Positions 53,882 to 64,000 of a DNA stretch of 64,000 bases are shown here, one piece after another. Position numbers and translations under genes: made by a program. Source of the DNA: a virus; the IMG/VR virus record IMGVR_UViG_3300021964_000045, positions 12,859 to 76,858 of that record. The stretch is one strand, 5' to 3'. The notes under the pieces are model-generated. The model was not told the origin of the DNA. It worked only from the letters and a program-made list of their open reading frames with translations, and did not search any database. Within the stretch, counting starts at the first letter, position 1. Each line of letters begins with the position of its first letter.

Positions 53882-53885
53882 ACAG

Positions 53886-53913
53886 AAGGGGAGCTTTTAT
53901 AGCTCCTCTTTTA
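53886..53913. terminator. Hairpin between convergent genes (probable terminator)
   Basis: aaggggagct-tttat-agctcctctt plus T tract at the +/- strand junction. Confidence 0.7.
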
Positions 53914-54495
53914 TTTTCCTATCTTCCAGTAAAGACCACCGGATATAACAGGTTCAAAGTTTTGGTTAACCCCTAAACCTATGCTATACATTTGTTTCTT
54001 TTTATTCTTATATAGTAGACTACCACCTAAGTAATTTAGCTGATCTGATCTACCTTTTAAATCAATACCCCAATAGAACTCTCTATTATTTAAATAGATT
54101 TCTTTTGTTACTGTAGTTGTTGGATAAATAAGATCATACTCTATAGTCCGTGCAAATATTTTGTTCTGAGATATAGAATCAATTATAGTTAGATTAAGAC
54201 TATCTAATTCTTGTTTGTCTTGATATACGTATGTAGCAAAGTAATCTTTTAATATTGCTACTGTATCAATAGGTTGTATTCTAACTATTGTGTCTACCCT
54301 GGTCTCTATTTTTTGTACATACTCAGGTACGTAAACAGGTACGTTTTTAGTAATTGTATCATACCTGGTTTCAATCTTTGTTATAATAACAGGGTCAACA
54401 GGAATAGGATCCCCTGAACAGTTTCTCATTATTAATAATATAATCACTAAGATCACTATCAATAAGGTTTGTAAATTTTTAAAGTACTTTTTCAT
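53911..54495 (-). CDS. Membrane-anchored spanin-like protein (194 aa)
   Basis: N-terminal TM followed by RNCS; DT-rich extended stalk; C-terminal amphipathic beta strands ending GGLYWKIGK. Resembles lysis-accessory (DUF6808-like) genes of Bacteroidota phages. Confidence 0.5.
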   Translation of the reverse strand: MKKYFKNLQTLLIVILVIILLIMRNCSGDPIPVDPVIITKIETRYDTITKNVPVYVPEYVQKIETRVDTIVRIQPIDTVAILKDYFATYVYQDKQELDSLNLTIIDSISQNKIFARTIEYDLIYPTTTVTKEIYLNNREFYWGIDLKGRSDQLNYLGGSLLYKNKKKQMYSIGLGVNQNFEPVISGGLYWKIGK

Positions 54496-55106
54496 TTCTT
54501 ATCAGTATTAGTTGCATGCTTTACACCCATTATTGTACCTATTATACTAAAAGAGTTAGTTAACAGTATACCAAATAAATTGGACCAGGTACTCTCTATT
54601 ATTTTAGAATCATGTCCAAACAATAAAACAAACACATATAAGCCGGTTGTTATTAATCCTACTCCCATGATTACCCAAAGAGCAACCTTGACAATATTAC
54701 TCATTAGTTCTGTTTGTGTTTTCTTTTGGAGTAATGACAAATCAGTTTGAGCAATTTCTTTTGCTTCCTCAGCTTCTGATCTTAATTTATGAGCTTCCTT
54801 TTCAGCTAAAATTGCTTCTTCTGCTGACTTACTTGCTTCATCTAAAGCTTTTGATAGTTGTTTATTTACCCTATCATTTTCTTTAGCTGCTAATTCTAAA
54901 TCTTTATTTTGAGCCTGAACCTGTTTAGTTATATCTAAACGTTTTCTTCTTTGAGATAAATCTTTCTTCTTACACTCTTCAATATAATCTTTAACTTCAG
55001 GATCAGAAGTCTTAGCCAACAACTTAACAAAGTTTCCTTCTATGTAAACTTTTTTAGTCTTAGCTTTCTTAATAGCTTCTTTGATAGTGTCTTTAGAACT
55101 TATCAC
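54492..55106 (-). CDS. Coiled-coil protein with two C-terminal TM helices, holin-like (204 aa)
   Basis: Charged N-terminal coiled coil; TM1 VALWVIMGVGLITTGLYVFVLLF; TM2 LFGILLTNSFSIIGTIMGV; GTG start overlaps the regulator's stop. Confidence 0.55.
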   Translation of the reverse strand: MISSKDTIKEAIKKAKTKKVYIEGNFVKLLAKTSDPEVKDYIEECKKKDLSQRRKRLDITKQVQAQNKDLELAAKENDRVNKQLSKALDEASKSAEEAILAEKEAHKLRSEAEEAKEIAQTDLSLLQKKTQTELMSNIVKVALWVIMGVGLITTGLYVFVLLFGHDSKIIESTWSNLFGILLTNSFSIIGTIMGVKHATNTDKK

Positions 55107-55537
55107 CTATATACTTTAAAAGGATTAGTTTTATTGACATAACCATCATAGTCTTTGTGAAACTCCTCTAGTCTTGGCTCAATGTCATCAGACTTAATAA
55201 TCCAAAACTGTGCACCTACTTCTTTAGCTTTTTCAATTTCCCCGCTATCACTGCTGCTAGAAATAATGCCAATAACACATCCGTTACCATAATCTTGATT
55301 TATCTTCCTTATCATTTCTATACCGTCAAAGCTAGAACCAATAATATTAAGATCTACAAAGACACACTGGGGCCTATCATTTCCATTATCTGGAAACCAA
55401 CTCTTAAACATTCTATCAGCTTCATCTGAGCTATCCAGTGATTCTATAGATAAAGCTATATCTAACATACTACAAGCATCTTCAAATACCAAATGAAATA
55501 AATTTTCATCATCTATTAGCATTAATGTATCAATCAT
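55103..55537 (-). CDS. Single-domain response regulator (CheY/Rcp1-like receiver), 144 aa
   Basis: LIDD (D9,D10), VFVDLN (D62), DGIE, IISSS (S93), GAQFWIIK (K115); no output domain. Confidence 0.92.
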   Translation of the reverse strand: MIDTLMLIDDENLFHLVFEDACSMLDIALSIESLDSSDEADRMFKSWFPDNGNDRPQCVFVDLNIIGSSFDGIEMIRKINQDYGNGCVIGIISSSSDSGEIEKAKEVGAQFWIIKSDDIEPRLEEFHKDYDGYVNKTNPFKVYR

Positions 55538-56433
55538 AATTTTATTTTTATTTCTGTTCCTTGTTCTAATTTTTTTGCACTTACTTTAAATTTGTGCTCT
55601 TTTAAAATTGCAATTGAAATATTAAGACCCAATCCTGTGCCTGCTTCTTCTTGCCCTTCTTTTCTTGCGTATGGTTTTGATAATAAAATAAATTCTTCAT
55701 TGGTGATTCCTCTACCGTTGTCTTGTATAGCAATAAAGGAATTCAATTCATCATCTATATCTTTATAAATTTTAATATACTTTGTACCTGAGTCATTATA
55801 TTTCAATCCATTTCTTATGAAGTTATCTAAAGCTGTACAAAATAATGCTTCATTTATTTTTAATGATGTATCTAAACTATCATCTAGTATAACTTGATTC
55901 TTGTAAGCAGTTAAACGTAAATAGTCTTCTAGTATAAATTTTATATTTTTTAATTCAGTTTTTAACTCAGCATTTTCTTTTACAAGATTTGTAAACTCAT
56001 AAACTCCTGCATAAACTTTTTGTGCATGATGTAATCCATCAGTTATTAATTTAATTGGAGCATTTATTTTTAACTCTTTAATATCTTCTTCACTAAGTCT
56101 ACGCTTGAGAGATTTAAGACCTCTGGGTAAATAAGTGTTAATGCCACTATGCATGTCATGACGTATGATTTTTGCTGCGTGTTCTAGATATATATTCTTT
56201 TGAGAAAGGTCTTTTCTTATTTTAGCTTTATTTAATAAAAACTCTTGTACTACTTTAAAAAAAGGAGGCATAAAAAATACAACACATCCCCAACCAAACT
56301 TAGCCAACTCTAAAGACGGATCACATAATCCAAACACAATACATGTCTGCACTCCAAAAAATGTAATCATAATTAGACCAGCAACAGCTAATGATATTTT
56401 AGCGTTTAATGATATATCATCTAAAGCACTCAT
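55534..56433 (-). CDS. Membrane sensor histidine kinase (299 aa)
   Basis: Two N-terminal TMs; H box IIRHDM (H92); N box LDNFIRNGLKY; G1 IQDNGRGI; G2 GTGLGL. Confidence 0.92.
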   Translation of the reverse strand: MSALDDISLNAKISLAVAGLIMITFFGVQTCIVFGLCDPSLELAKFGWGCVVFFMPPFFKVVQEFLLNKAKIRKDLSQKNIYLEHAAKIIRHDMHSGINTYLPRGLKSLKRRLSEEDIKELKINAPIKLITDGLHHAQKVYAGVYEFTNLVKENAELKTELKNIKFILEDYLRLTAYKNQVILDDSLDTSLKINEALFCTALDNFIRNGLKYNDSGTKYIKIYKDIDDELNSFIAIQDNGRGITNEEFILLSKPYARKEGQEEAGTGLGLNISIAILKEHKFKVSAKKLEQGTEIKIKL

Positions 56434-56435
56434 GC

Positions 56436-56636
56436 TTATAGCTCAGATTTCTTAAATCCACATTTGCTAAAAAACCATTTAGACGGACAAAATCCTGTCC
56501 ATACACCAACGTTTAACATAAATGTTACAAAGATTACTACCGCCCAGGATTCAAAAAAATAGCCTGCAAGTAATACTATAGACATTAACAAGTAAACCAT
56601 TCTTGTATCAGTAATTGACTCAAATAATTTTTTCAT
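56436..56636 (-). CDS. DUF2892/YgaP-like two-TM membrane protein (66 aa)
   Basis: R followed by two hydrophobic helices ending TGFCP, the DUF2892-type signature. Confidence 0.7.
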   Translation of the reverse strand: MKKLFESITDTRMVYLLMSIVLLAGYFFESWAVVIFVTFMLNVGVWTGFCPSKWFFSKCGFKKSEL

Positions 56637-56782: not shown

Positions 56783-56824
56783 TGTAAAACAAGAAGAACC
56801 GGCCTCAGAATAAGACCGGTTCTT
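56783..56824 (-). terminator. Terminator downstream of nrdA
   Basis: Minus strand aagaaccggtct-tattctg-aggccggttctt followed by cttgtttt. Confidence 0.7.
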
Positions 56825-59939: not shown

Positions 59940-60251
59940 ATGGACTCTACACAAATTATAATAACCGTACTTACGGTTGCCGGATCAACCGGTGTCTGGC
60001 AGTTTATAGCAACAAGATATAAATCCAATAAAGAAAAAGAAAAGTTTGATACATTAAATAGTGACGGTGTGCAATATAGAGATGATTTAAAAAATAGAGT
60101 AAGAAACTTAGAAAGTTTGCTTGCTGTAAGCTCTGATGAAAAAGATTTAATGAGAGAGCAAGTACTTGCATTAACAGCAGAAGTACATGCACTTAGAGTA
60201 AAGGTTGACTTCTTAGAAAAAGAAAATCAAAGACTTAAGAATTTGAGTTAA
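59940..60251 (+). CDS. Single-TM plus coiled-coil protein, holin/antiholin-like (103 aa)
   Basis: IIITVLTVAGSTGVWQFI followed by heptad repeats. Confidence 0.5.
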   Translation: MDSTQIIITVLTVAGSTGVWQFIATRYKSNKEKEKFDTLNSDGVQYRDDLKNRVRNLESLLAVSSDEKDLMREQVLALTAEVHALRVKVDFLEKENQRLKNLS

Positions 60252-60289
60252 CAAAAAAAAATATTATATTTATATATAAACACATTACT

Positions 60290-60544
60290 ATGATAAAAAT
60301 TGTTTTAAATAAAATTTGGAATTTCTCACTTAAAAAAGGTTGGGATTGGGTTTGGTCTAAAACAACAGTAGATGAAAAAGCTATTGAAGTTGTTAAAGAA
60401 ACAAAGCGTAGAGCCAAAAGAGTAAAGGAAGAATTCCAGGATGTAAAAGCTGAGGTCAAAGATGTTGTTAAACAATCTAAGGATGTAGTTGATGCAGCTA
60501 AAGGTAAAAGACGTAGAGGTAGACCAAAGAAAAAAGCAGAGTAA
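60290..60544 (+). CDS. Basic amphipathic protein with C-terminal AT-hook-like RRGRPKK (84 aa)
   Basis: Intact ORF, coupled by TAATG to the next gene. Confidence 0.55.
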   Translation: MIKIVLNKIWNFSLKKGWDWVWSKTTVDEKAIEVVKETKRRAKRVKEEFQDVKAEVKDVVKQSKDVVDAAKGKRRRGRPKKKAE

Positions 60545-60786
60545 TGAAAAAGATAATTAATTGGGCAGCAGGTTTACTTAAAGATGAGAAGGGTTCTCCT
60601 TCATCAAAAAGATTTATTGGTGTTATAGCTGGTTTATCTTTATGTATAACTCTTTTTGCAAATCAATTTACAGAAGAGCACATTGCTCCTTCTCCTATTT
60701 TAATTAATGCTGTTGCAGCTTTAGCTTTTGGTGCATTGGGTTTAGCTTCTGTAGATAAAATTTGGAGTAAAAGAGATAAAGAATAG
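60544..60786 (+). CDS. Two-TM holin-like protein (80 aa)
   Basis: SSKR followed by two TM helices and a charged C-terminal tail. Confidence 0.55.
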   Translation: MKKIINWAAGLLKDEKGSPSSKRFIGVIAGLSLCITLFANQFTEEHIAPSPILINAVAALAFGALGLASVDKIWSKRDKE

Positions 60787-61089: not shown

Positions 61090-61380
61090 ATGTTATTTGG
61101 AAAAAAAACAAAAATATATGCACCAAATATCAGCGCTAATGTAGAAGCTGATGTAGATGCTAAAATGAAAAAAGGTGGTGAAAAAGGAGCAAAAGCTCTT
61201 ATTGCTGCCTTAAAAAAACAAGGTTATAAAAACGGTGGTGAAAATACATCACTACTAAATAAAATGACTTATGGTGGTGGTATTGATATGTCAGAAAAAC
61301 TTGTAAACACTATGAGAGGTGCAGGAAAAAAAATGCAAATAGGGGGTAGCACATACTCAGGACCTAAAAAGAAAAAGTAA
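61090..61380 (+). CDS. Small basic protein with four xxxGG motifs, probable internal virion protein (96 aa)
   Basis: MKKGG, YKNGG, MTYGG, MQIGG. Confidence 0.55.
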   Translation: MLFGKKTKIYAPNISANVEADVDAKMKKGGEKGAKALIAALKKQGYKNGGENTSLLNKMTYGGGIDMSEKLVNTMRGAGKKMQIGGSTYSGPKKKK

Positions 61381-61961
61381 TGCAAATACTAACTGACATA
61401 TTAAGTCTTTTTAAAAGAAAACAAATGGTCAAGGAGACAACTCCAGATGACCTTATTGTTATTGGTAGACATGAAGAGCCGGATATGTTAGGTATTGCAT
61501 CCCCTATACCATATAAATCAGCTAAGTTAATAAAGGTTAAAGACTTATTAAATATTTCTGAGTGTAATTACTCAAACCTTAATAATGCTACTGGAACAAA
61601 TCCCAATGGAATTTATATTAATAAAACAAGTGATCCTTGCTCTGTTAATTTAAGATCTATTACAGCTGTGGGTAACAACATAAACATTGTTACAAATAGC
61701 AATGAGATTGAAGTTTCAACTACAGGTGAACCAAATATAGGTTACAGTGTAGGTACAGGAAAGTCAATATATAAAGATAAACTAGGAGAAATATTAAGAT
61801 TCAAAACTATAACAAATGGTAATGGAGCAATTGGTATTACAGAAAGTGCTGATGAAATTGATATTAATTTAAAAAAAGTTTTACTATCATCACCAGATGG
61901 TACCGTATGGGAAATTACAGTTGATAATGGTGGTAAAATTACAGCAACAGCTCAACCTTAA
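61380..61961 (+). CDS. Fibre/decoration-like protein, paralog 1 (193 aa)
   Basis: Shared N-terminal domain; C-terminal LSSPDGTVWEITVDNGG fibre-type motif. Confidence 0.6.
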   Translation: MQILTDILSLFKRKQMVKETTPDDLIVIGRHEEPDMLGIASPIPYKSAKLIKVKDLLNISECNYSNLNNATGTNPNGIYINKTSDPCSVNLRSITAVGNNINIVTNSNEIEVSTTGEPNIGYSVGTGKSIYKDKLGEILRFKTITNGNGAIGITESADEIDINLKKVLLSSPDGTVWEITVDNGGKITATAQP

Positions 61962-61967
61962 AGAATA

Positions 61968-62588
61968 ATGAATTTATTACAAGACATACTAGGACTAGTT
62001 ACAAGAAAACAACAAGTTAAACCTGTTGACACTGATGTACTACCTATTGGTAGATATAAAACTTCCAAAGAAGTATTTAAACCAAAACCAGAGATGAAAA
62101 CAAATCTGGTTACTTTAAGGGACTTAAAAAATTATATTAGTAAAGATCCATCTGGAGATAATCAAACATTATCCCTGGATGGAAATGATTTATCTATATC
62201 AAACGGAAATACAGTAGACTTATCTACTCTTGATCTTGATTCATCTTCAGTACCTGTTAAGTTAGTACCATTTAATATAGTAGCAGGGGCAGATCAATCT
62301 GGTTCTATACCATTAGATTTTAATCTAATTAATCTTTCATGGGATGGTTTAGATAATGGAACATATACATTAAATATTCCTAGTGCATCTTCAATGCTGT
62401 ATAGAAATATACGCATTGTGACTGATGGTACATTGGATAATGGTGCTCAAGATAAAATAAATGTAACACCAGTACATGGAGAAACTATAGATGGAGCTCC
62501 ATTTTTTGAAATATCTAAACGTTATGAAGGTATTTCCATATGGTCAGATGGTGTAGAGTGGAGAATTATACAAGCTAAAGCACACTAA
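61968..62588 (+). CDS. Fibre/decoration-like protein, paralog 2 (206 aa)
   Basis: Shared N-terminal domain; QTLSLDGNDLSISNGNTVDL repeat; ETIDG...WSDGVEW tip motif. Confidence 0.6.
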   Translation: MNLLQDILGLVTRKQQVKPVDTDVLPIGRYKTSKEVFKPKPEMKTNLVTLRDLKNYISKDPSGDNQTLSLDGNDLSISNGNTVDLSTLDLDSSSVPVKLVPFNIVAGADQSGSIPLDFNLINLSWDGLDNGTYTLNIPSASSMLYRNIRIVTDGTLDNGAQDKINVTPVHGETIDGAPFFEISKRYEGISIWSDGVEWRIIQAKAH

Positions 62589-62590
62589 AC

Positions 62591-62782
62591 ATGCCAGTAA
62601 AAAAGAAAAGTACAGTAAACAAAGCGGGTAATTATACTAAACCTACAATGCGTAAAGCTTTATTTAATAAAATTAAAGCTGGTAGTAAAGGTGGTAACCC
62701 AGGACAGTGGTCTGCACGTAAAGCACAAATGCTTGCCAAACAGTATAAAGCTAAAGGTGGTGGATATAAAACTAAAAAATAA
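62591..62782 (+). CDS. DUF5872-like basic protein, N-terminal half (63 aa)
   Basis: YTKP...KGG.PGQWSARKAQ.LA..Y...GGGY signature. Confidence 0.7.
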   Translation: MPVKKKSTVNKAGNYTKPTMRKALFNKIKAGSKGGNPGQWSARKAQMLAKQYKAKGGGYKTKK

Positions 62783-63024
62783 TGGCTAAAGCAAAGTCAC
62801 AGAAAAGTTTAGATAAATGGACTAAGCAGAAGTGGAGAACTCCTTCTGGTAAAAAAAGTAAAGATACTGGTGAAGTATATGCTCCAGCTAAAACTATTTC
62901 TAAACTTAAAAGTACTGCTGCCGGTAGAAAAAAATTAGCCGCTGCTAATAAGAAAAAAAGAGCAGCAACTAAAAAAGGTAAACAACATGCTAGTCATGGA
63001 TTACATAAAGGAAAAAAAAGATAA
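62782..63024 (+). CDS. Basic protein resembling the continuation of DUF5872 (80 aa)
   Basis: QKSLDKWTKQKWRT...GEVYAP; TAATG overlap. Confidence 0.6.
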   Translation: MAKAKSQKSLDKWTKQKWRTPSGKKSKDTGEVYAPAKTISKLKSTAAGRKKLAAANKKKRAATKKGKQHASHGLHKGKKR

Positions 63025-63037
63025 AAACTAGATAATT

Positions 63038-64000
63038 ATGAATTTTATACAAGAAGTCTTAAATCTCTTAGACAGAAAACAAGACAAGAAAAAACTTGAT
63101 CTCAGAAGAGATTGGTTTGAATTTGGTAGAACCAGACCTAGTAGTGTTGGTAATCCGTTATATACACCTAAAATGAATCCTCATGCAATTAGGTATGATG
63201 ATTTAAAATGTAATATAATTTCTGGACTAGTAAGTGGTACAGGTACTGAGTATACATTACCAATGTGGTCAACAATAGATACTAATAATTGTAATGTGCA
63301 AACAATCATTGATTCAGTATATAGTCAAGATGCTGGTGCTTCAGAAGGTTTAGTTAGCGCTAACTTTAGAGTAACGGGTGATACTGTACTTGAGGGTGAT
63401 CTTTTAGTATTAGGCACTCAAACAATTGTTGAATCAACTATTGTACAAGTAGCTGATAATATTATGCGGATTAATTCTGGCGGTGCTGGTGTTGACGCAG
63501 GTATTGAAGTTATTCAGCCAAGTGGTACTAAAACTTGGGCTTGGGATAATGCTCAAGGTATGTGGTCAACATTTGGTGATAGCATTCTTACAACAGATAT
63601 TACTATTCAAGGTGCCATCAAACAAGATGGTGAAACCTTAATCAATGTTGTTAATGAAGCAGAAGGTTTGTTGTCACAAGATAATGATGAATCCTTAGCA
63701 ACTGTTGCTGCTATTATTGATTATGTAGATAAATTAGTAGATAAAGCAGAATATGAAGTAATTTATACAACAGATGCCGGTTTAACACAGGCAGGACCTG
63801 GTCAATTAGTATTTAATCAAGCAACTGATGAAATTTACATGAGTTGGTATGATCTTAATAGTAATGATAGAAAATATGCTTTAGAAACAATTTTATATTC
63901 ACCTGGTAAAAAGCCATTTGGTTTATTTACTGCAGATAAAGCTGATCCTTGGGTTAACTATAATGCTCAGTATTTTAATCCATGTGGTATTGAAATCTTA
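63038..64000 (+). CDS. Fibre-like protein, paralog 3, 3'-truncated (not in ORF track)
   Basis: Starts MNFIQEVLNLLDRKQ and stays open to the window end; contains GDLLVLGTQTIVEST...DNIMRIN...AGIEV, similar to the 615-aa fibre. Confidence 0.7.
   Translation, partial: MNFIQEVLNLLDRKQDKKKLDLRRDWFEFGRTRPSSVGNPLYTPKMNPHAIRYDDLKCNIISGLVSGTGTEYTLPMWSTIDTNNCNVQTIIDSVYSQDAGASEGLVSANFRVTGDTVLEGDLLVLGTQTIVESTIVQVADNIMRINSGGAGVDAGIEVIQPSGTKTWAWDNAQGMWSTFGDSILTTDITIQGAIKQDGETLINVVNEAEGLLSQDNDESLATVAAIIDYVDKLVDKAEYEVIYTTDAGLTQAGPGQLVFNQATDEIYMSWYDLNSNDRKYALETILYSPGKKPFGLFTADKADPWVNYNAQYFNPCGIEIL

Follow-up and report, generated by a model that had tools for sequence, protein, structure and literature searches.

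The time of lysis is a central trait in the life history of a phage, and to our knowledge it responds to a signal in only a few known cases, mainly the lysis inhibition of the T-even phages and of ICP1. Holins are very diverse and high conservation among them is unusual, many antiholins are variants of their cognate holin, and the pinholin S21-68 of phage 21, which makes small depolarising holes, is 68 aa long and has no cytoplasmic sensor. In staphylococcal cells the LytSR system works with LrgAB and CidAB, and LytR is a DNA-binding protein that acts transcriptionally. Stand-alone receivers that act by binding a partner are exemplified by CheY with FliM and DivK with DivL, the S-helix connects kinase or cyclase outputs with a PAS or GAF domain, and in host defence the 2-TM effectors of CBASS and the type III CRISPR protein Cam1 have a sensing domain fused to a membrane-permeabilising TM effector. 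Phage T4 responds to superinfection, its antiholin RI acting directly on holin T (PMC11413866); the Vibrio phage ICP1 also shows lysis inhibition (PMC7182436).

The subject of this report is a 204-aa phage protein with a coiled coil and a C-terminal hairpin of two transmembrane (TM) helices, encoded directly downstream of a receiver gene. As with LytSR, a two-component system is linked to a holin-like membrane protein, but in the present case the system belongs to a phage, its receiver lacks an output domain, and the connection would apparently be protein-to-protein. The receiver is like CheY and DivK in being a REC-only protein whose phosphorylation state would be read by a partner, although the partner part is a new N-terminal domain (N-domain) on a coiled-coil membrane protein, to which the receiver would presumably bind. 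S21-68 has a similar arrangement of two TM helices, N-in/C-in, with a polar glycine-bearing helix, but there is no homology, and in the 204-aa protein TM1 is strongly hydrophobic and TM2 marginally so. Its coiled coil recalls the S-helix, a parallel coiled coil that likewise changes length in heptads and starts at the 'DIT' motif of PAS domains, the output here being a 2-TM hairpin and not an enzyme. CBASS effectors and Cam1 also combine a sensor domain with a small transmembrane effector, but their domain order is different, and the present family is phage-borne, occurs in lysis cassettes and has no PADLOC match. If the protein acts as proposed below, it would share with T4 (holin T, RI, RIII; PMC11413866) and ICP1 (PMC7182436) a phage-encoded, signal-responsive timing of lysis through membrane lysis proteins; it has no sequence or fold relation to the T4 proteins, and no kinase, receiver, PAS or GAF domain is known to take part in that system, whereas sensing here falls to a two-component relay or to a sensor domain fused on the cytoplasmic side. 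A literature search found no paper tying phage kinases, receivers or PAS domains to holins or lysis proteins.

The locus and its two-component relay

The window analysed is a stretch of 64,000 nucleotides, part of a ~76.9-kb IMG/VR virus record with an estimated completeness of 67%. Its source is an uncultured marine, crAss-like phage with giant virion proteins, one of which carries the DFDID polymerase motif of crAss-like phages; estuary and seawater metagenomes contain DNA near-identical to the window, and searches of deposited phage genomes by blastn and tblastn gave no match. The gene for the 204-aa protein lies among five tightly packed minus-strand genes that encode, in order, a 66-aa membrane protein, a 299-aa kinase, a 144-aa receiver, the 204-aa protein and a 194-aa protein. 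The upstream boundary of this unit is a terminator-like hairpin after nrdA (56794–56824, minus strand) with a 14-pair stem followed by a T run, and the ~160 nt of intergenic DNA beyond it contain promoter-like sites. At the other end, a two-way terminator-like hairpin (53884–53912) separates the 194-aa gene from a convergent gene of 1918 aa. The cassette is flanked in the window by ribonucleotide reductase genes and a backbone gene, outside any lysis cassette.

The first gene of the module, tm66 (56436–56636, minus strand), has a weak match to YgaP-like_TM (E=0.093). It immediately precedes the kinase gene in 12 of the first 39 loci; the kinases concerned measure about 296 to 428 aa, and none of the 532–707-aa kinases has it as a neighbour. 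We note that its product carries a GFCP motif, and that conserved Cys residues are present in the membrane helices of the kinase (56270–56433; VQTCIVFGLC, GWGCVVFFMPPFF).

The kinase gene (55534–56433, minus strand) encodes two TM helices followed by a DHp and a catalytic domain, with a HATPase_c match of 46.1 bits and many matches to kinase families in NCBIfam. The boxes can be read in the sequence: an H box (IIRHDMHSG), identified by eye with no HisKA Pfam match, an N box, G1 (DNGRGI) and G2 (GTGLGL), so that the product has both the phospho-accepting His of a DHp domain and the catalytic N, G1 and G2 boxes of a histidine kinase. The kinase of the window has no PAS or GAF domain; those of its relatives share the same constant 2-TM head, which is followed by none to two PAS domains or by GAF plus PAS.

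The receiver gene (55103–55537, minus strand) overlaps that of the kinase as ATGA. Its product scores 32.1 bits with Response_reg (PF00072), for which the cut-off is 30.2, and no further domain was found in its 144 aa, in agreement with the preliminary description of this DNA, which had called it a receiver without an output domain. The acidic pair (LIDDE), the phospho-acceptor Asp (VFVDLNI), the Ser (IISSS) and the Lys (IIKSD) are invariant or nearly so among 73 distinct homologs, as expected of a REC domain.

A receiver of this kind, the same description had argued, needs a partner, and the 204-aa protein is its fixed partner: the receiver gene is directly upstream of an N-domain gene in all 118 loci with room to check, including 78 of 78 metagenome loci with room (of 80) and 4 of 4 loci in metagenome-assembled genomes (MAGs). 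Kinase, receiver and membrane protein follow one another in this order in 36 of 39 viral loci; a contig end or a deletion accounts for the remaining three, and the gene downstream of the membrane protein is not conserved across loci of the family. Obligate co-occurrence with the receiver and the possession of an input domain, both found for the 204-aa protein, are the properties of an output partner. From gene linkage only, we infer that the receiver in its phosphorylated or unphosphorylated form binds the N-domain; in a comparison of distance matrices the receiver–N-domain correlation (r = 0.62) was barely above that between receiver and hairpin (r = 0.58).

Modules and register of the 204-aa protein

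The open reading frame (54492–55106, minus strand) begins with a GTG (55106–55104) that overlaps the TGA of the receiver (55105–55103) as GTGA. The start codon embedded in the receiver's stop had been remarked on previously, and we consider it sound because homologs at two other loci (L012 and L014, 'MISSKDTVKEA...') start with ATG at the same aligned position. Nor is the frame a chance one, since it has 3591 homologs at E<=0.01, forming 253 clusters at 50% identity. No meaningful match came from Pfam, PHROGs, NCBIfam or PADLOC, PF28006.1 being listed for a few homologs, and no holin family of Pfam or PHROGs was matched at E<=0.1. Neither Foldseek against the PDB nor a PDB profile search found anything, and the only match in BFVD by Foldseek was an uncharacterised homolog. 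The family is found almost exclusively on phage contigs: its Atlas clusters are 94–100% viral, and the genomes of 185,579 prokaryote species yielded only eight loci, all on MAG contigs and from eight phyla, which fits phage DNA that was mis-binned.

The general layout given in the preliminary description holds. It had noted a charged, helical N-terminus of about 135 aa, and 56 of these 135 residues are charged, the segment being helical in an AlphaFold2 model; the C-terminal 2-TM hairpin is supported by Kyte-Doolittle maxima of 2.35 for TM1 (residues 145–163) and 1.76 for TM2 (177–195) and by the same model. Built from a 32-sequence alignment with a mean pLDDT of 81, the model has short helices at residues 5–18 and 25–30, an unbroken helix from 36 to 163 that runs into TM1, a 4-residue turn, and a helix from 168 to 201, with block-mean pLDDT values of at least 90 across roughly residues 51–120. 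The topology is predicted to be N-in/C-in, as read from the long cytoplasmic N-terminus.

Alignment divides the family into three modules: an N-domain, a coiled coil of variable length, and a juxtamembrane motif with the hairpin. The N-domain (residues 1–70; 54897–55106, minus strand), which we take as the putative receiver-facing input on the basis of its invariant residues, the receiver linkage and the domain swaps described below, has invariant E23, G24, K28, D35, Y41, D49, R53, R56, T60, Q64, Q66 and N67. The variable coiled coil, or signalling helix (residues 71–118; 54753–54896, minus strand), lies inside the continuous helix 36–163. It is followed by the juxtamembrane motif DLxxLQKKxQxEL and TM1 (residues 119–163; 54618–54752, minus strand), in which A119, D122, L123, Q127, K128, Q131, L134, I138, A142, L143, I146, G148, V149 and G150 are invariant, and then by a short outer loop, TM2 (WSNLFGILLTNSFSIIGTIMGVK) and a charged tail (residues 164–204 and stop; 54492–54617, minus strand). 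TM1 is strongly hydrophobic; TM2 is polar (N176, T183, N184, S187, T191) and marginally hydrophobic. Among 73 distinct relatives the mean pairwise identity is 46% in the N-domain, 67% in the juxtamembrane segment, 62% in TM1 and 89% in TM2.

Several other functions for the cytoplasmic part were considered and set aside. Hpt-like phosphotransfer was rejected as this part has no invariant His, the spacing of D122 and Q127 is five rather than the four of a CheZ-like DxxxQ phosphatase motif, and bZIP-like DNA binding through the basic RRKRL...QN segment was dropped as the same position feeds a kinase core in fusion proteins. A separate observation is that a D-I-T tripeptide at residues 55–57 ('RLDITKQ', 54936–54944) opens the long helix of the N-domain and resembles the DIT motif at the end of PAS domains, its position being off the PAS-type spacing by one residue; as far as such a resemblance goes, the N-domain might derive from the C-terminal part of a PAS domain.

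Profile searches recovered variants in which the modules are exchanged. The same TM2 hairpin is common to the 204-aa protein and to forms with GAF plus coiled coil (P0145) or with PAS or PAS-PAS plus coiled coil (P0177, P0178 and P0161), and conversely the N-domain and coiled coil are joined to a histidine-kinase core (P0241, P0250, P0254 and P0260). The PAS-PAS-hairpin form is present at 253 viral loci, and none of the 80 of these examined has a kinase or receiver gene. The kinase fusions were found at no viral locus, and a metagenome scan gave a single short contig (L129), on which a protein that joins the N-domain and coiled coil to a HisKA/HATPase core is encoded directly downstream of a kinase–receiver pair. 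The preliminary description had supposed its N-terminal segment (VYIEGNF...RRKRLDITKQVQ) to be a docking site for the phosphorylated receiver that controls oligomerisation or pore formation; that segment is the conserved N-domain, and the PAS and GAF swaps together with the fusion to a kinase core bear out its behaviour as an input. It had also held that homologs commonly found without the kinase and regulator would speak against this arrangement. Such homologs do occur, but only as hairpins with a PAS or GAF sensor of their own, and these support the reading of the hairpin as a relay output instead of refuting it. Receiver linkage on the one hand, and PAS or GAF swaps that dispense with the relay on the other, are the reasons for assigning the hairpin as output and the N-domain as receiver-facing input.

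The length of the coiled coil is constrained. In 182 of 190 distinct sequences the spacing between the anchors N67 and D122 is 34, 41, 48, 55, 62, 69, 76 or 83 residues, and the eight exceptions share one other phase, the overall range being 34 to 87; the estimated probability of such heptad spacing by chance, over ten length classes, is ~3e-5. In the PAS forms the DIT motif is 35 or 42 residues from the hairpin anchor. Because the linker changes in steps of seven, the PAS DIT motif keeps its spacing and the modelled helix 36–163 is continuous, the coupling appears to be rigid, and the coiled coil is, judged by its spacing, a ruler and not a tether. We hold it to be very probable that the 204-aa protein is the output of the relay and is coupled to it through this coiled coil.

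Accessory status and gene neighbourhoods

Two complete relatives of the source phage differ at this locus. One (G002; 116,877 b) has the same cassette arrangement as the window, with its endolysin gene ~67 kb and a small 2-TM gene ~4 kb away. The other (G001; 117,277 b and 100% complete) has no hairpin homolog and retains the same endolysin and small 2-TM gene as its siblings; its corresponding slot (L209:5095–6987) contains genes for a 395-aa signal-peptide protein, a 94-aa TM and coiled-coil protein and a 136-aa signal-peptide protein, all unrelated to the module. On this comparison the content of the slot between nrdA and the gene for the 194-aa protein is variable cargo. A further locus (L037) has lost its kinase and receiver together with most of the 204-aa homolog, and an out-of-frame hairpin remnant is left beside an intact endolysin and holin. 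Because one sibling is without the module, the other has it and this third copy has decayed, the module is, on the genomic evidence, an accessory, mobile signalling unit with the hairpin as its output. At this site (L037:7898–8210) everything between codon 39 of the gene for the small membrane protein and codon 135 of that for the 204-aa homolog is missing, and both remnants contain in-frame TAG codons (GYLL-TAG-SWGVV and KHAT-TAG-TDKK-TAA) where the window has E and N, which suggests that TAG is read as an amino acid in this 169-kb phage.

The 194-aa gene (53911–54495, minus strand) is coupled to the gene of the 204-aa protein by an ATGA overlap and is a signal-plus-Cys backbone gene outside the module. 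It has 347 homologs, none of them with a Pfam family, and no PHROG match; of its 57 viral loci only one has the cassette, and in 56 it occurs independently of lysis genes and cassette. The preliminary description had called this neighbour spanin-like. An i-spanin has an N-terminal TM and a periplasmic coiled coil, an o-spanin is a small nested or adjacent lipoprotein, and a u-spanin is a lipoprotein with a C-terminal TM. The 194-aa protein has an N-terminal signal with Cys26, no C-terminal TM and no coiled coil, and this, with its independence of the cassette, fits none of the three types.

In hundreds of other phages the hairpin gene is found in the company of lysis genes. Its recurrent neighbours are endolysins of four unrelated types (GH19, GH24, M15 and amidase_2), Phage_holin_4_1 and members of a small 2-TM holin-like family, as well as lipoproteins that have a C-terminal TM and that we read as unimolecular spanins. 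An endolysin gene lies within 5 kb in 36 of 42 loci of the sensor-fused PAS type and in 19 of 38 of the kinase type, these being raw counts over loci with flanks of at least 3 kb and lower bounds, since these very loci supplied the sequences for the endolysin models. These neighbourhoods in relatives point to lysis control, and from them we judge a role of the hairpin in lysis timing to be rather probable.

For the window's own lineage, no endolysin was found in the 76.8 kb of the record that were covered, and close to the module in the window just one gene can be recognised as of lysis type, an 80-aa 2-TM holin-like frame (60544–60786, plus strand) of the small 2-TM family that recurs beside the hairpin gene at both kinds of locus. 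It is the last of a plus-strand trio (59940–60786) conserved in both siblings, which encodes a 103-aa TM and coiled-coil protein, an 84-aa basic protein and the 80-aa protein; these may be the lineage's holin or spanin-type genes, although its endolysin gene is elsewhere.

Possible roles of the hairpin

The preliminary description had termed the 204-aa protein holin-like, and part of this stands: it has a 2-TM membrane layout, and thus at least the one TM helix of a holin. Endolysin neighbours are a feature of its relatives and not of the window. Against a part as the essential hole-former are the absence of any holin-family match, the sibling that lacks the family, the co-occurrence of other holin-like genes and the distance of ~67 kb to the endolysin of the lineage, and with 204 aa it also exceeds the usual size of a class II holin. 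The essential holin of the phage is therefore probably another protein. That it is nonetheless a true holin, as that description had it, with the hairpin accumulating to form lethal holes that release the endolysin and the relay setting the trigger time, agrees with two TM helices, N-in/C-in, and a short charged C-terminal tail, which is the class II layout, and with the endolysin gene that directly adjoins the hairpin gene in 26 of 80 PAS-type loci or, as a GH19 enzyme, directly follows it in 10 kinase-type loci. The complete sibling, however, does without it while keeping the same endolysin and small 2-TM gene, the decayed remnant at L037 sits beside an intact endolysin and holin, and conservation of this degree would be exceptional for a holin, so that we regard a true holin as quite improbable. 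An antiholin, in which the hairpin binds the real holin and holds or releases it according to the state of the relay, much as T4 RI and RIII do with holin T, would account for the dispensability of the module in the sibling, as expected of a regulator, and for the all-round conservation of TM2, which fits a tight helix–helix interface. Other holin-like genes accompany the hairpin gene, at no more than 5 kb, in 30 of 42 loci of the PAS type and 10 of 38 of the kinase type. But the accompanying holins vary (Phage_holin_4_1, small 2-TM, or none detected) while the hairpin is nearly invariant, it is homologous to neither holin family (hhalign probability <1% with both) though many antiholins are holin variants, and in the lineage of the window the nearest holin-like gene is in another transcription unit; we think an antiholin unlikely.

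A further possibility is that the hairpin has nothing to do with lysis and serves to exclude superinfecting phages, to manage ions or energy in the infected cell, or to place the relay at the membrane, its link to lysis genes reflecting the ordinary clustering of membrane and accessory genes. In the window and the complete sibling that has it, a long distance indeed separates the module from the endolysin, and its slot is one of variable cargo. No lysis gene was recognised within 5 kb at 14 of the 38 loci of the kinase type, and the lack of PADLOC matches means that it is not a known defence system. The recurrence of four unrelated endolysin types beside the gene is nevertheless hard to explain without a shared role, and the hairpin, as the most conserved module, should be more than an anchor, and we consider an effector outside lysis unlikely.

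We rank first a signal-gated depolarising trigger, because the hairpin is nearly invariant while the holins that accompany it differ and are unrelated. With TM2 89% identical across phages whose holins differ, the hairpin would be expected to act on something universal. The 204-aa protein would form a parallel dimer, and the receiver, phosphorylated or not, would dock on its N-domain; the resulting change would pass mechanically down the coiled coil, as in the signalling helices of sensor kinases, and the four-helix membrane bundle would rearrange on the signal. Hairpins with a polar, nearly invariant TM2 could then assemble into a small pinholin-like channel, whose opening would collapse the membrane potential and fire the ordinary holins of the phage, so that the hairpin would be an accessory, signal-gated trigger and not an essential holin. 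That a gated depolarising channel is the molecular act of the hairpin, as the polar residues and their conservation hint, is a tentative suggestion. Taken as a whole, the best explanation is that the protein is the dedicated membrane output of a phage two-component relay and an accessory signal-gated lysis trigger, for which we see an even chance. The family may, somewhat more speculatively, constitute a self-contained modular phage sensory pathway, in which PAS or GAF domains, directly or through a kinase and a REC-only relay, act by way of a heptad-locked coiled coil on a hitherto undescribed 2-TM output that gates permeability and decides the time of lysis.

If this is true, many environmental phages would take account of the condition of their host cell before they lyse it, by a new kind of signal-dependent lysis control that is spread across many unrelated aquatic phages, and two-component systems would have a new class of output that acts on the membrane and is neither enzymatic nor DNA-binding. 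The system is small and modular, consisting of four genes or of one fused gene.

Finally, near the right end of the window (61380–64000), three consecutive genes encode proteins of 193, 206 and at least 321 aa that share the N-terminal motif M.(I/L)(L/I)(T/Q)(D/E)(I/V)L.L..RKQ; the trio looks like alternative versions of a fibre or receptor-binding protein built on one attachment module.
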